Source of the DNA: a bacterium
Lineage (GTDB): Bacteria; Patescibacteriota; Patescibacteriia; PEXW01
DNA length: 47,785 nucleotides
NCBI GenBank assembly: GCA_030689605.1
Contig: JAUYFT010000001.1
Location: 1-47,785, forward strand
Reading direction: 5' to 3'
Part shown: positions 26,321 to 47,785 of the stretch, one piece after another
How the letters are laid out: each line of letters opens with the position of its first letter
How positions within the stretch are numbered: the stretch's first letter is position 1
Position numbers and translations under genes: made by a program
Notes under the pieces: model-generated
Told to the model about the DNA's origin: nothing
Databases searched by the model: none
The model's input: the letters and a program-made list of their open reading frames with translations, nothing else

Positions 26321-26440
26321 GTCATCCTGAGTCCCGCATGTGCGGGACGACCTGCCCGCCGAACTCGCTATGGCGAGGCAGGCGGGAGGATCTTGCCCGG
26401 AAGGCAGCACAGCAAGATTCCTCGTTGAGCTCGGAATGAC
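26321..26440. repeat. GTCATCCTGAG...AGGATCT...GGAATGAC REP-like element with a nested CCTGCCCGCC hairpin
   Basis: 36-nt hairpin 26351-26386 interrupts CGA|AGGATCT. Confidence 0.8.
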
Positions 26441-28864: not shown

Positions 28865-28922
28865 GGAGTAGAGACTTTAGTCTCTTGTCTATCAACTGTG
28901 AAGAGGCTAAAGCCTCTACTCC
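28865..28922. repeat. REPIN on the 5' side of the RAYT
   Basis: GGAGTAGAGACTTTAGTCTCT...AGAGGCTAAAGCCTCTACTCC. Confidence 0.9.
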
Positions 28923-28931
28923 GCCGGAAAC

Positions 28932-29438
28932 ATGAACCCCTACCACAATCCACCACACCTGTACCTTGATCAATCACTATACTTTGTAAGTGCGAGAACA
29001 TTCGAAGCCCAGCTGTACCTTAAAGATGGTACACGTAAACAATTGTTCGTTAAAAAGTTAAATGATTTGCTGCAAGAGTATCAGTATAAACTTTATGCCT
29101 GGGTTGTGCTTGATAATCATTACCACCTTATCTTTGAGACGAACCAGGGTGCCAAGTTGCCGAAGTTCATGCAAGCATTGCACGGCGGCACCTCTCGCGC
29201 ATTGAACCTTATGGATGGTATCGAAGGCCGGAAGGTATGGTTCAACTACTGGGATCGTTGTTTACGGGATGACGTGGATTTCAATACTCATTGCGATTAC
29301 ATTCATTATAATCCCGTAAAGCATGGTTTTGCAGAACATCCCGAAGATTACCCATTCTCAAGCTATAAAGATTTCTTAAAAAGAAAATATTATGAAATAG
29401 GTTGGGGGTACGCGGAACAAAGAATATTGAAAAATTGA
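28932..29438 (+). mobile_element. REP-associated tyrosine transposase (RAYT, Y1 HUH superfamily)
   Basis: YAWVVLDNHYHLI HUH motif, YWDRCLRD, YIHYNPVKHG catalytic Tyr, YPFSSY; flanked by GTAG REPs. Confidence 0.92.
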
Positions 29439-29439
29439 A

Positions 29440-29535
29440 GGAGTAGAATTCATAGGAGGAGTAGAAGCTTTAGCTTCTTTGTTACATACAGAGGCTGAAG
29501 CCTCTACTCCTAGAGGAATAGAGACTTTAGTCTCT
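29440..29535. repeat. REP cluster on the 3' side of the RAYT
   Basis: REPIN 29458-29510 plus single or partial REPs at 29440 and 29515. Confidence 0.88.
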
Positions 29536-29572
29536 AGTAATAAACCAAAACAAAAATCGTCCATTCCAAAAT

Positions 29573-45268: not shown

Positions 45269-46159
45269 ATGCTCACCGATTGGATATTCCTAGGAGTATT
45301 TGGTGCCTGCGTGGTTACCTGCGCGGTGGTAGTGTGGCGGAAGTTGCCGCAGCTGGCGAGTATCCGTACGGACGCTATCCCCAAGCACCAACAACAAGCT
45401 CGAAAGCAGCAGATCTTGGATAAGCGCCTTCAGCAGAAGCTCGGGAATGCCGAAGCGGCCATTGTGAGAACGCTGACCAAGGGCTTTCAAGGAATGTGGA
45501 GCGGACTTCAGGTGCTGCTTCGCCGTTTGCGTGAACTTGAACGTGAGTACCGGCGCAAAGTAGTCACCCAGCAATCCATAGAGAATCCCGAAGTGCTGCG
45601 TTCTCGCCTCGCGACCGGGCTCGCCGACGCGCAGACGGCCATGGCGGCTGAAGACTTTCCTCGAGCCGAACAGCTCTTTGTAGATATCGTTGCCCTCGAT
45701 CCGAAGAACGTCGAAGCGTATATTGGGCTTGCGGATGTGGCCATGGCGAAAAAGGATTATACGAATGCCCGTGAGGCACTCCAGTTCGTGCTCAAGCTCC
45801 AGCAGGGGAATGATTCGGTTTATACTCGGCTCGGCCGCATTGCGACTGATGAAGGGAAATTCTCCGAAGCCGAAGCAGACTATCTTAAGTCTGTTAGCTT
45901 GAATGCGTCGACCGCTACCGCACAGTTTGAACTGGCAAATATTGAAGTGAAGCTTGGCAATGTAGAGAAAGCCCAAACTGCCTTTCAAGAGGCGGTTAAG
46001 CTTGAACCGGCAAACCCAAAGTACCTGGATGCATTGCTCGCCTTCGCTATCCAGCATACTCGTAAGGACATCGCCCGTGAAACGCTAGCACGGCTCCGCG
46101 AGGCAAATCCAGAGAATCAGAAATTACCCGAACTTGCAGAAGCCGTGAAGAAGTTGTAG
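45269..46159 (+). CDS. Membrane-anchored TPR protein
   Basis: N-terminal TM; TPR motifs LDPKNVEAY, LEPANPKY. Confidence 0.85.
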   Translation: MLTDWIFLGVFGACVVTCAVVVWRKLPQLASIRTDAIPKHQQQARKQQILDKRLQQKLGNAEAAIVRTLTKGFQGMWSGLQVLLRRLRELEREYRRKVVTQQSIENPEVLRSRLATGLADAQTAMAAEDFPRAEQLFVDIVALDPKNVEAYIGLADVAMAKKDYTNAREALQFVLKLQQGNDSVYTRLGRIATDEGKFSEAEADYLKSVSLNASTATAQFELANIEVKLGNVEKAQTAFQEAVKLEPANPKYLDALLAFAIQHTRKDIARETLARLREANPENQKLPELAEAVKKL

Positions 46160-46181
46160 TGTTGTACGTTCTCAATTACAT

Positions 46182-46250
46182 GCCGTTGTAGTCCCGTCCC
46201 GCGCTAGCGAGACGAGGATCCTCGATCCCTTCGGGATCGGGAATCAGCGG
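46182..46250 (+). pseudogene. Possible decayed 5' fragment of tRNA-Thr interrupted by a double TCCCG/CGGGA hairpin
   Basis: GCCGTTGTAG|insert 46192-46242|ATCAGCGG resembles GCCGATGTAGCTCAGCTGG. Confidence 0.4.
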
Positions 46251-46291
46251 AATCGAACACACAAGTACGTTACAGTTTTTCCAAATCGTAT

Positions 46292-46367
46292 GCCGATGTA
46301 GCTCAGCTGGTAGAGCAACTCCATGGTAAGGAGTAGGTCGCCGGTTCAATTCCGGCCATCGGCTCCA
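46292..46367 (+). tRNA. tRNA-Thr(GGT)
   Basis: GCCGATG/CATCGGC acceptor, ACTCC-ATGGTAA-GGAGT anticodon arm, TTCAATT T-loop, CCA. Confidence 0.95.
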
Positions 46368-46546
46368 TGAACCACTCGCTTCGCTCGGGTTCATGGCGAG
46401 CCACGTATGTGTACAAGGCTTGCCTGAATATAAAGTGCTAATGTGGTTCATGCCCTGCACCGGAGTCCCGTCCGCGGGACGACTGGTACAGGGCAGCCCC
46501 GCAGCCTCGCTTGACCCCAGGGAAATCTGACAATTTTGGAAAATTT

Positions 46547-46842
46547 TCCGGAGTAGCTCAGTGGTAGAGTCCCGATCTGTGAAGCAGATCGAGGATGCAC
46601 GATAGCCCGATGGGCTATCGGCACAACGCTTTTGTCCCGCTCGTTTGCTGCTATCATGAAGGCAGACGCGGGATCCTCGTAGTTCTTCAAAATCTTGCCG
46701 GAGTAGCTCAGCTGGTAGAGCAACGCTTTGGTAAAGCGAAGGTCGGGGGTTCGAGTCCTCTCTCCGGCTCCATCGGCAAGATTTTGTAAGAACTTCGGGA
46801 TAAAGCGAAGGTCGTCCCGCCACGGCGGGACGGGTGGCTCCA
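46547..46842 (+). pseudogene. Outer, fragmented tRNA-Thr(TGT)
   Basis: Pieces 46547-46569, 46624-46634, 46801-46814 and 46832-46842 separated by hairpin inserts; T-loop and part of the 3' acceptor strand deleted. Confidence 0.8.
46697..46772 (+). tRNA. tRNA-Thr(GGT), nested inside the Thr(TGT) remnant
   Basis: GCCGGAG/CTCCGGC acceptor, loop TTGGTAA, TTCGAGT T-loop, CCA. Confidence 0.93.
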
Positions 46843-46870
46843 CTCATTATTCCTCTCTAATACCTATTGT

Positions 46871-47026
46871 ATGTCCCAAGACAACCTGATCCACCTGGAG
46901 TGCACGGTTTGCAAGCATGTGAACTACCATTCGAAGAAGAATAAGAAGACGCTTAAAGGTCGATTAGCATTGAAGAAACACTGCACCTGGTGTGGCAAGC
47001 ACACCTTGCACAAGGAAACGAAGTAG
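46871..47026 (+). CDS. rpmG: 50S ribosomal protein L33 (zinc-binding form), not in the ORF track
   Basis: [51 protein letters not shown]. Confidence 0.95.
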
Positions 47027-47038
47027 TTTTCCACGCCT

Positions 47039-47290
47039 GGGGGAATAATTCATCGGTAGAACGACGGTCTCCCCGCCTGCCGGAGTACAGGGATAACATT
47101 AAGTCGTTAGTTGATGGGGGCGTAGTTCAACAGTAGAACTTCGGTCTCCAAAACCGGTAACGAGGGTGCGACACCTTCCGCCCCCGCCAACTAGCGACAA
47201 TAATGCTGTACAAATTGAAGGAAAATATTTACTTCGTACGGCGGGCAGTCAAAACCGTAGAGGAGGGTTCGATTCCTTCTGCCCTCGCCA
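47039..47290 (+). pseudogene. Outer tRNA-Trp(CCA) split at the anticodon by a 178-nt insert
   Basis: 5' half 47039-47072 plus 3' half 47251-47290 rejoin to ACGGT-CTCCAAA-ACCGT with GAGGG-TTCGATT-CCTTC and CCA; one acceptor and one D-stem mismatch. Confidence 0.85.
47116..47189 (+). tRNA. tRNA-Trp(CCA), nested inside the outer tRNA-Trp
   Basis: GGGGGCG/CGCCCCC acceptor, TCGGT-CTCCAAA-ACCGG, T-loop TGCGACA, CCA end. Confidence 0.9.
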
Positions 47291-47558
47291 GTACTGCAGG
47301 TGCCTGGTAGGGGCGCATGCAGGATCATGTGGAAAATGGAATCGAACGGGTGCGAGCGAGCGTAGCACCCCGGCCCGAAGGGCGATTCCTTCTTCCCCCG
47401 CCAGCTCTTTTCCCGAAATTTCATTTGGGGGATTTCCCGAAAAAGCTTTAGATTTTTCGTACTCCGTGTATGCGGAGTGTGCCGCATTGAGAGAGAGGAT
47501 TGCCTCCGCCATCTCGCTACGCTTGAGCGGACAGGCTTGCCTAAAGAAAATAAGTACG

Positions 47559-47606
47559 CTTGCCCGTCCGTAGTCCACCCCGGGTGGACGTAGGCGGGCG
47601 GGCAAG
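47559..47606. repeat. REP-like GC-rich hairpin
   Basis: CTTGCCCGTCCG..GTCCACCC/GGGTGGAC..CGGGCGGGCAAG. Confidence 0.7.
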
Positions 47607-47646
47607 GAACTCCCAAATCATTGACTTATTAGTGAAAAATTTATAT

Positions 47647-47785
47647 AAGACCCACTGCCCAAACCCCATTCCGCCAGACACCTCAAAGCGGGTGCTTGCT
47701 TGATTTACGCGTGCCGCAGATTGTAGAGACCTACCACCGTCTTGAAGATATCATTGTAATCGGAGAGGGTGCTCCTGAATCGGTG
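47647..47785 (-). mobile_element. Probable end of an IS5/ISL2-like (DDE_Tnp_4) element with partial transposase C-terminus (47705-47785)
   Basis: Minus frame HRFRSTLSDYNDIFKTVVGLYNLRHA*; TA-AGACCCACTGCCCAAA could be the terminal IR. Confidence 0.45.

Follow-up and report, generated by a model that had tools for sequence, protein, structure and literature searches.

Intact tRNA genes nested within older cognate tRNA genes by hairpin-ended inserts in Patescibacteria

Few genes are normally as stable as those for tRNAs, or as strictly passed on by vertical inheritance. The final 1.3 kb of contig C28 (JAUYFT010000001.1), a stretch of 47,785 nt that was analysed at its full length and is called the window here, holds two loci that raise the question of how one tRNA gene may come to sit inside another tRNA gene for the same amino acid. 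The contig belongs to a genome of groundwater Patescibacteria, G000 (GCA_030689605.1; 644 kb in 33 contigs, 83% complete). One locus, the Thr nest, spans positions 46547–46842 and the other, the Trp nest, positions 47039–47290; in each, the remains of an outer tRNA gene enclose a hairpin-ended insert with an intact tRNA gene in its middle. The initial annotation, made from the sequence alone, saw in these inserts either non-autonomous elements that target tRNA genes and offset the damage by carrying a whole tRNA, or an unknown class of tRNA-containing intron.

Architecture of the two nests

ARAGORN finds three intact tRNAs in the window, namely Thr(GGT) at 46292–46367, Thr(GGT) at 46697–46772 and Trp(CCA) at 47116–47189, all on the forward strand, as are all features of the two nests given below. 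An Rfam search of 45800–47785 at a permissive E-value returned just the same three tRNAs above threshold, the remainder being at chance level. The outer Trp gene emerges on excision of the 178-nt insert at 47073–47250, which joins 47039–47072 to 47251–47290 and restores a 74-nt tRNA-Trp(CCA) that ARAGORN accepts. Among 110 in-silico joins near the junctions, 27 gave a tRNA call, and two gave the 74-nt Trp(CCA) starting at 47039. These two joins (47071|47250 and 47072|47251) place the split at 35/36 with one ambiguous C, exactly as first annotated. The outer 5′ half (47039–47072, positions 1–35; repeat D2) is 80% identical to the first 35 nt of the inner tRNA-Trp and belongs to a type found intact in G001, G002 and G005. 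The outer 3′ half (47251–47290, positions 36–76; repeat D5), compared together with the ambiguous base (47250–47290), is 78% identical to the last 41 nt of the inner gene. Relative to its intact relatives, the outer Trp gene has A in place of G at position 10 of the D stem and, in the acceptor stem, an A-G mismatch.

From the outside inwards, the Trp insert consists of a GC-rich terminal helix, a GTAC helix, an AT-rich spacer, a leader-trailer helix and the inner tRNA, and it folds into a long stem (z −4.4). Its left end (47073–47090) reads CCGCCTGCC and then GGAGTAC, and its right end (47233–47250) reads GTAC, then GGCGGGCAG, then TC; both ends are invariant columns in an alignment of Trp elements from six genomes. 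The leader (47103–47115) pairs with the trailer (47190–47198) through inverted repeat I2 (z −4.5), and the pairing is supported by covariation. Between them lies the intact tRNA-Trp(CCA) (47116–47189; 57.1 bits in Rfam), the complete gene for the same amino acid that had been placed in the loop of the stem at the outset. The T loop of this inner tRNA (47164–47170) reads TGCGACA, with a G where the conserved T or pseudouridine 55 is expected; the T loop of the Trp gene in G007 reads CGCAACA, and that gene is no longer called by ARAGORN.

The Trp nest is not an assembly artefact, because a 670-nt contig of sequencing run X1, which may be the source sample of the window genome, matches 47005–47450 with 0 differences and because the pattern occurs in many independent assemblies. 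The read check suggested with the initial annotation thus disclosed no misassembly at the Trp locus. This contig spans the Trp nest, and the part of the Thr nest at 46578–46700 lies outside any run contig; runs X2 to X4 yielded only tRNAs of relatives and cassette parts. A look for RNA data turned up no run fit for use, X19 and X20 containing 0.04–0.05 of the sampled words.

The Thr nest shares the general plan, and its outer gene is a dead mosaic, not one intact split tRNA. The outer copy starts with positions 2–24 (46548–46569; repeats D4 and D7, a 23-nt match with 96% identity to the inner tRNA), position 46547 being a T where G1 is expected. A 54-nt cluster of two small hairpins (46570–46623), delimited by sequence reading and folding, lies between positions 24 and 25, followed by positions 25–36 (46624–46635; D13), which end in the anticodon TGT, are 92% identical to 46721–46732 of the inner gene and recur as the same piece in G003, a genome of the same genus. 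The insert opens with a hairpin of the TCCCGC..GCGGGA family (46635–46673), the first T of which is the ambiguous base 36, and which is kept in G003. It continues with a left arm or leader (46674–46696; repeats I1 and I10, fold, z −4.3), the intact tRNA-Thr (46697–46772; called by ARAGORN, 64.7 bits in Rfam) and a right arm or trailer (46773–46800), which pairs with the left arm according to inverted repeats and folding and ends in TTCGGGA as in G011. Downstream of the insert, the outer gene resumes with positions 36–49 (46801–46814; D6, 100% identical to 46732–46745 over 14 nt). Then a further hairpin of the TCCCGC..GCGGGA family replaces the T arm (46815–46830), as it does in the dead Thr genes of G003 and G009. 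The copy closes with a 3′ acceptor strand and CCA (46831–46842) of the type seen in the intact Thr(UGU) of G003.

The Thr insert measures 166 nt and folds with z −7.1; the junction is again at 35/36, and its two sides share one ambiguous T. The leader and trailer pair in both inserts (I1, I2 and I10), in line with the long inverted-repeat stems of the initial annotation. The outer 3′ acceptor strand (46832–46838) does not pair with the 5′ strand (46548–46554), and joins near the Thr site, which also serve as a chance control for the Trp joins, gave a tRNA in 0 of 1540 two-part and 0 of 270 three-part combinations. The split outer Thr gene first described thus keeps its 35/36 junction, its arms and its inner tRNA, but the outer gene itself proves to be a disrupted mosaic that no join turns into a tRNA. 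With introns allowed, ARAGORN left the outer Trp gene unreported and fused the outer Thr 5′ piece with the inner 3′ half into a chimeric “tRNA-Leu(cag)”.

The outer and inner Thr copies differ in their anticodons (TGT versus GGT), being isoacceptors for the same amino acid. In its body, the inner gene is of the Thr(UGU) type known from relatives, with a G34 that makes its anticodon GGT; this G lies at 46730, and the dead orthologue in G003 has T there. Thr is represented among the 27 tRNAs of the assembly by two Thr(GGU) genes, with neither Thr(UGU) nor Thr(CGU), and in 265 long open reading frames (ORFs) of G000 ACA and ACG make up 11.8% and 35% of the Thr codons, respectively. A missing contig, a real anticodon shift and a consensus error are possible causes of the absent Thr(UGU).

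Two further genomes bear on this locus. G011 has a clean Thr(UGU) nest that shares arm bases with G000 (GGGATCCTCG on the left; TTCGGGA and then TAAA on the right); the interiors of the arms differ between the two genomes and are still complementary. G003 has the same left hairpin, left arm and homologue of the inner Thr gene, with anticodon TGT; this copy is dead, its T arm overwritten, and a second, intact Thr(UGU) follows downstream, the two homologues being in tandem, not nested. The Thr locus thus records several events, the order of which is only partly reconstructable. In the three dead tRNA-Thr copies (window 46815–46830; L015 of G003, about 1341–1356; L004 of G009, about 1331–1348), the T arm is exchanged at near-equal length for a near-identical GC-rich hairpin (CCCGCC, 2–4 bases, GGCGGG), which looks like the overwriting of one hairpin by another and not like plain insertion.

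Recurrence, repeat families and decayed copies

Both nests flank rpmG (46871–47026), which encodes ribosomal protein L33 of 51 amino acids (aa). Loci fetched by means of this protein carry Patescibacteria titles, the closest named ones belonging to Candidatus Kerfeldbacteria, and the gene order in relatives is tRNA-Thr(GGU), tRNA-Thr(UGU), rpmG and tRNA-Trp. L016, L029, L031 and other records are titled “uncultured Gammaproteobacteria”; they have the gene order and L33 similarity of Patescibacteria, and their titles have the look of placeholders. Across the Trp nest, L031 and L105 (G059, in the GTDB class of the window) have the same sequence.

At least seven other genomes (G007, G009, G011, G059, G047, G135 and G288) share the junction and the insert ends of the Trp nest, so that the refuting condition set with the initial annotation, a pattern present in no other genome, does not hold. 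The left junction, CTCC|CCGCC, and the right junction, GGCGGGCAG, G or T, C and then AAAACC, are invariant in the six-element alignment, and the inserts of the six genomes with both Trp junctions range from 113 to 201 nt. The individual nests differ in their state of preservation. G135 has the minimal insert of 113 nt; G007 retains both Trp halves around a 172-nt insert, with two broken outer acceptor pairs; G009 has the left junction only, with the 5′ half and the cassette and without the 3′ half; and G011 carries a Trp nest plus a further, older 5′ stub. The locus L120 of G288 contains three ordered Trp layers, in the sequence 5′ half 1, 5′ half 2, intact gene, 3′ remnant of 2 and 3′ half 1.

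A class-wide view was obtained by running the left-junction pattern over 401 genomes of the class and fetching 30 loci, in seven of which, from six GTDB families, the match directly follows a tRNA-Trp 5′ half. With one mismatch allowed, matches across the class were about as frequent as those of a reversed control; only matches in the context of a tRNA-Trp 5′ half were counted, the doubtful L126 was excluded, and the junction of G011, where the anticodon stem differs, was missed by the pattern.

The same junction and ends stand beside at least four different outer tRNA-Trp types. Moreover, the Trp type that is the inner gene in G000, G007, G009 and G011 is the outer, broken type in G059, and a contig of run X2, whose loose end lies at 47149, has the right insert end joined to the 3′ half of this inner type of G000, the same reversal in a further sample. 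Within the genus of G000, tRNA-Trp occurs as three unrelated types and tRNA-Thr(UGU) with three acceptor types; the first tRNA-Thr(GGU) gene (46292–46367), an invariant neighbour of the nests, is identical in six of the six same-genus loci that hold it. The mixed distribution of the types and the reversed nesting order argue for horizontal transfer. The inner tRNA-Trp of G000 is identical to that of G009, from another genus, at 74 of 74 positions; we rejected this identity as proof of recent transfer, since tRNA-Thr(GGU) is also near-identical across genera.

The stems have been maintained as the sequences diverged. RNAalifold on the six Trp elements gave 53 pairs, 16 of them with double compensatory changes, and the arms pair in all six. 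The compensatory pairs include GTAC/GTAC versus GCAC/GTGC in the second helix and four leader-trailer pairs. The terminal 10 bp are invariant in the six elements, including a conserved T-G pair and a C-A mismatch.

The insert ends belong to two palindrome families that also exist as short, tRNA-free copies elsewhere in the window, as first annotated and now borne out by pattern counts. TCCCGC..GCGGGA has four matches in the window against 0.21 expected from shuffles, two of them tRNA-free (24353 and 26332), and CCGCCTGCC..GGCGGGCAG has one match against 0.00 expected, a cargo-free copy at 26352–26385 on the minus strand. Across the 644 kb of G000, the Trp-type family has 32 loose matches, about 30 cargo-free copies among them, and the Thr-type family occurs at 28 places. 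G007 and G135 each have three exact short copies of the Trp-type ends as well. Neither window insert holds a plausible ORF, an integrase or an endonuclease; the tRNA and the arms fill the 166 and 178 nt. Of the marks of miniature inverted-repeat transposable elements (MITEs), the inserts show inverted ends and the lack of an ORF; no target duplication beyond the one ambiguous base (C in Trp, T in Thr) is seen.

The intron suggested by the initial annotation is an RNA-level reading that we hold to be scarcely credible. It would have the stem unite the outer halves, RNase P and RNase Z free the inner tRNA, and the outer tRNA become ligated or work in two pieces. ARAGORN still accepts the joined outer Trp halves as a tRNA, the stem brings the two anticodon-loop ends together and its pairs covary, and the assembly lacks a tRNA-Thr(UGU) although ACA accounts for a part of the Thr codons and the outer Thr carries TGT. 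However, the outer Thr copy has no T arm and its acceptor strands do not pair, the outer Trp copy has suffered the D-stem and acceptor changes noted above, G009 is without the outer 3′ half, and G007 has its two broken acceptor pairs. In addition, the junction forms a symmetric 4-by-3 internal loop without the staggered 3-nt bulges of a bulge-helix-bulge motif, and no group I or other Rfam intron was found by covariance model in 45800–47785. The tRNA-splicing endonuclease domain (tRNA_int_endo, PF01974) was found in none of the 31 genomes searched, 26 of them at least 90% complete, and was found in four archaeal controls. The decay of the outer copies and the negative search for this endonuclease in the 31 genomes lead us to conclude that the inserts are very probably not introns.

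Nesting extends to other tRNAs of G000. For 8 of its 27 tRNAs, cognate fragments were found in their own 500-nt flanks with a local alignment score of at least 33; the same queries on the flanks of non-cognate tRNAs had median scores of 16–18, some of these cross scores being inflated by the overlapping flanks in the tRNA cluster of contig C2. Each of the intact genes for Pro(UGG), Pro(GGG), Val(GAC), Ile(GAU) and Phe(GAA) has a 5′ stub of an older cognate gene on one side and 3′ pieces of it on the other (C2 2650–4050 and C4 8340–8613, minus strands). These older Pro, Val, Ile and Phe copies are broken in the D loop or D stem, which corrects the initial view of the anticodon as the sole break point. 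The two Pro loci have a common 5′ stub and first hairpin, and the Val nest has paired GC-rich arms of its own. The D loops of the dead Val and Ile copies contain cargo-free members of the Trp-type family, preceded by GCTC and followed by A, a context that resembles CTCC|A in Trp. On contig C18, an intact Tyr gene is followed by two decayed copies, one of which is broken at 34/35 by hairpins, the first of which has a counterpart at this position in L031. Leader-trailer pairing at z ≤ −4 is seen for 4 of the 27 tRNAs of G000, all of them nested.

These decayed copies could also be explained with no mobile cargo unit at all, if tRNA copies once lay side by side, one was killed by hairpins of the repetitive extragenic palindromic (REP) kind, and deletions or recombination then mimicked nesting. 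Dead tRNA copies of G000 are indeed riddled with small hairpins at many positions, the Tyr copies on C18 and the Thr(UGU) homologues of G003 are in tandem, and the T arm was overwritten by a hairpin in three separate dead copies. This stepwise decay, however, leaves unexplained why the same phosphodiester junction and ends stand beside at least four outer tRNA-Trp types, and why the order of 5′ half, cassette and 3′ half is strict up to the three-layer nest of G288; nor does it predict that leader-trailer stems surround nested tRNAs only. Inner and outer copies are merely about 78–80% alike and so are not recent duplicates, which counts against it as well. We regard it as rather improbable.

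Candidate mobilisers and the favoured explanation

The explanation that we favour, tentatively and just short of calling it probable, is that the inserts are DNA-level, site-specific, self-compensating cassettes with a tRNA cargo, resembling the REP-derived hairpin elements called REPINs and most likely moved in trans by an HUH-type enzyme. What was observed is the architecture, the recurrence, the identical junctions, the stem covariation, the decay of the outer copies and the short cargo-free copies; the enzyme, the insertion into single-stranded DNA, the selection behind cognate pairing and the RNA role of the stem are parts that we infer. The cassette would be an ORF-less, hairpin-ended unit of REPIN or MITE type, whose apical spacer holds a tRNA gene with paired leader and trailer. 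It may enter the single-stranded loop of a cognate tRNA gene without target duplication, the site being 35/36 for tRNA-Trp and 35/36 or 36/37 for tRNA-Thr(UGU). Once interrupted, the gene would be dead, and the tRNA of the cassette, being for the same amino acid, would keep the cell alive. Only cognate insertions would be seen because only those are tolerated, other hits on a single-copy tRNA gene being lethal. Since the inner tRNA offers the target anew, invasions could stack into nested shells of decaying halves, which small hairpins would riddle further, and the outcome would be a rapid horizontal turnover of an essential tRNA gene. The long stem may serve both as the structure recognised by the mobilising enzyme and as a signal in the RNA for cutting the inner pre-tRNA out of read-through transcripts; a promoter and terminator scan gave no promoter-like site on the forward strand.

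The mobiliser favoured here would be a Y1/HUH transposase of RAYT or IS200 type, acting in trans. Three Y1_Tnp-like ORFs were found in G000, one of them in the window (28932–29438, 168 aa; PF01797, E 1e-7). This IS200/RAYT-like ORF is flanked on both sides by short palindromes tagged with GGAGTAG (28866–28925 and 29450–29540), the classic layout of a RAYT with its own REPs. A GGAGTA motif is also present just inside the left end of the Trp insert. Y1_Tnp-like genes were detected in four of five other nest-bearing genomes. The non-autonomous, tRNA-targeting and damage-offsetting element of the initial annotation agrees with the recurrence with differing tRNAs, the stacked nests and the covarying stems, but its link to HUH/RAYT enzymes is only inferred.

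A second kind of enzyme is found at equivalent positions. In L029, a 79-aa GIY-YIG ORF (PF01541, E 5.7e-15) lies between an old Trp 5′ piece and the intact tRNA, and the unit is repeated twice. The same layout, with ORFs read by eye, occurs for Trp in L015 (G003), L040 and L122 (G211); for Tyr it occurs in L031 of G059, taken as the same record as L105. On contig C12 of G000 (45631–45199, minus strand), positions 1–18 of tRNA-Leu(UAG) are followed by two hairpins, positions 19–28, a GIY-YIG ORF of about 85 aa and the intact tRNA-Leu(UAG). The five nest-bearing genomes searched have 5 to 13 GIY-YIG matches each, and the domain is present in 12 of 14 control genomes, being so nearly universal that its presence alone says little.

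Such nucleases could drive homing in trans, in which an uninterrupted tRNA gene is cut and repaired from the cassette allele, so that the junction and the ends are copied along. The tRNA halves would then be recombination arms, hence cognate only, and the hairpin would serve RNA processing alone. Homing accounts for the cognate specificity and the identical junctions more directly than a transposing cassette does, and also for the missing target duplication; the small ORFs between an old 5′ fragment and an intact cognate tRNA at several Trp, Tyr and Leu loci speak for it, and in phage T4 the GIY-YIG homing endonuclease SegB is described as acting on a region of tRNA genes (PMC2330249). Against it stand the ORF-less window inserts, the near-universal occurrence of the domain, and the different build of the GIY-YIG loci, which have no paired outer arms, usually lack an outer 3′ half and are broken at about 28/29, 36/37 or 43 and not at 35/36. 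Homing has no need of inverted ends either, and it leaves their invariance and the roughly 30 cargo-free copies elsewhere unexplained. Altogether, we judge homing unlikely, though deserving of some weight.

Very unlikely in our estimate is a third origin at the DNA level, in which integrase-type elements such as prophages or islands once entered the anticodon loop and were later deleted down to 166–178 nt. Elements that integrate into tRNA genes and displace partial copies are well documented (bioRxiv 10.1101/2022.07.05.498093), and the accessible part of an archaeal report places a 5′ fragment 1.8 kb upstream of a new tRNA-Thr with a recombinase in between (PMC3293823). A duplicate of a tRNA-Trp 3′ end at 47384–47403, downstream of the Trp nest, likewise resembles a displaced att-like piece. 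However, the junctions of the nests have 1 nt in common where a core of several bases would be expected, the insert brings a complete tRNA and not just a matching 3′ part, compact inserts (113–201 nt) with paired ends recur in seven genomes, and no remnant of an integrase lies inside the inserts.

The downstream duplicate belongs to a feature of its own (47338–47403; repeats D3, I7 and I9), in which a separate hairpin element (47338–47383) precedes a copy of the last 20 nt of the old tRNA-Trp (47384–47403). This conserved element of about 46 nt opens with the reverse complement of the T loop (GGAATCGAAC), closes with the T loop and is also present in L130 (G001), L131 (G005), L132 (G010) and L133 (G003). 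At Gly(UCC), Gly(CCC), Glu(CUC) and the old Trp, it is followed by an exact copy of the last 20 nt of the tRNA located 50–80 nt upstream. As the duplicate varies with the tRNA, the duplication seems to be made at insertion, and the T-loop hairpin with its 20-nt duplicate is a third kind of tRNA-gene-associated element. We had considered 47384–47403 as a third, older Trp layer and ruled this out, since it is part of an element that duplicates the last 20 nt of several tRNAs. The duplicate still pairs perfectly with 47039–47045 (I7), so that the 3′ end attached to the dead outer gene must have mutated since.

Other hairpins follow tRNA genes of G000 as well. A conserved hairpin of about 36 nt (TGAACCACTC..GGGTTCATGGCGAGCCA) stands directly after the CCA of the first Thr(GGU) (window 46368–46403), Leu(UAG), Lys(UUU) and Gly(GCC), its sites outside the window being on contigs C12, C14 and C20; a second family of post-tRNA hairpins occurs after Arg(CCU), Leu(CAG) and Leu(CAA). 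In a Bacteroidetes record (L072, 815–1129), the intact tRNA-Gly(UCC) gene is preceded by a tandem array in which its first 27 nt occur four times at a period of 96 nt; this case, from another phylum, is a phenomenon of a different kind.

Several points weigh against the cassette explanation. No enzyme is linked to the insert ends: the repeats around the Y1_Tnp ORF of the window form a different, GGAGTAG-tagged family, within 260 nt on each side of the other two Y1_Tnp-like genes neither family has an obvious copy, and among the three Y1_Tnp-like ORFs of G000 no cognate RAYT gene flanked by the insert-end repeats was found. G135, which is 94% complete and has a nest and three short copies, gave no Y1_Tnp match, and the GIY-YIG ORFs at equivalent positions offer an alternative engine. 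Exact short copies of the ends were found in none of three further nest genomes (G047, G059 and G288), and there the ends may be peculiar to the Trp element. In G000, no cargo-bearing copy was seen outside its cognate gene, whereas an element that transposes freely would be expected to leave one now and then; no population with both filled and empty sites was seen. Finally, the tandem Thr(UGU) genes of G003, together with the mosaic locus of the window, indicate that the Thr history involved more than one insertion.

Carried further, the cassette explanation leads to a broader proposal, which we put forward as conceivable and, taken as a whole, somewhat doubtful. The nests might represent an unrecognised selfish class in Patescibacteria that invades an essential gene and brings a full replacement with it. 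The host would pay no cost and could not purge the invader, and repeated invasions would swap tRNAs between genera and leave dead layers as a fossil record. The GIY-YIG nucleases and the hairpin cassettes could then be the autonomous and non-autonomous forms of one system, and the diversity of Trp and Thr(UGU) beside an invariant Thr(GGU) might reflect an arms race between a tRNA-targeting nuclease and resistant alleles.

Implications and comparison with known systems

An essential single-copy tRNA appears here to have been repeatedly overwritten by foreign copies by way of a tiny, self-compensating insert. If true, this would be a third way to live in an essential gene, namely to carry a spare, besides splicing oneself out, as introns and inteins do, and restoring the gene with a partial copy. 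It would also explain the strong divergence of tRNA-Trp and tRNA-Thr(UGU) between sister species of Patescibacteria, and the nested shells would provide a readable, ordered record of past invasions. In annotation, tRNA finders miss the shells or make chimeric, intron-containing tRNAs of them, and tRNA fragments near intact genes in these genomes are not to be taken for assembly errors.

Our literature search, with subscription journals outside its scope, revealed neither a bacterial case of a tRNA gene within its cognate gene nor a REP-like element whose cargo is a tRNA, in agreement with the initial remark that no description of the arrangement was known. The closest relatives by form are REPs and REPINs, described in the available texts as cargo-free hairpin elements mobilised in trans by RAYT (Y1/HUH) transposases (PMC3116915, PMC3337134). 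To the extent of those descriptions, the inserts share with them the short, GC-rich, imperfect and multicopy palindromes, the hairpin of two inverted arms and a spacer, the lack of an ORF, and the presence of Y1_Tnp-like genes in the genome. They differ in that the spacer is a complete tRNA gene with paired leader and trailer, in that they sit inside a cognate tRNA gene and not between genes, and in that six GTDB families share the same ends, in contrast to the vertical inheritance described there for REPINs. Moreover, a RAYT gene flanked by its own repeats, as in the REPIN/RAYT system, has no counterpart found for the insert ends.

Integrative elements are reportedly selective about the sublocation within a tRNA gene, a preference attributed to Williams (2002). 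With such elements, as portrayed in a preprint (bioRxiv 10.1101/2022.07.05.498093), the inserts have in common the tRNA or anticodon-loop target, the self-repair and the displaced fragments. By contrast with that portrayal, they supply a whole tRNA, leave halves on both sides, share 1 nt at their junctions, measure 113–201 nt and lack an integrase.

We know of no counterpart of the nested halves and hairpin ends in the SegB system of phage T4. A partial resemblance lies in the GIY-YIG nucleases beside tRNA genes in relatives and at tRNA-Leu(TAG) of G000, SegB being described, in the available text, as promoting the inheritance of its own region (PMC2330249). Unlike SegB, the two window inserts come without a nuclease gene.

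Disrupted tRNAs of archaea, as far as the accessible accounts extend, include transposing bulge-helix-bulge introns and split tRNAs (PMC10714607) and the tRNA-Thr locus of Caldiarchaeum (PMC3293823). They are similar in the interruption of loops at homologous positions and, at the latter locus, in an older tRNA-Thr 5′ fragment upstream of a newer gene with a mobile element between. Our case, set against those accounts, concerns bacteria, with no splicing endonuclease found in the 31 genomes searched, and the interrupted copy is replaced by the gene of the insert and not spliced.

Insertions in the rRNA genes of bacteria of the Candidate Phyla Radiation (CPR) are, as far as is known, removed from the RNA or tolerated in it. 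Within the same radiation, the available text on these bacteria reports insertion sequences and homing endonucleases in rRNA genes (PMC11270868), so that essential structural RNA genes are invaded in both cases. Compared with the insertions covered there, those of the nests go together with a different fate of the host gene, as the interrupted tRNA gene is abandoned and replaced.

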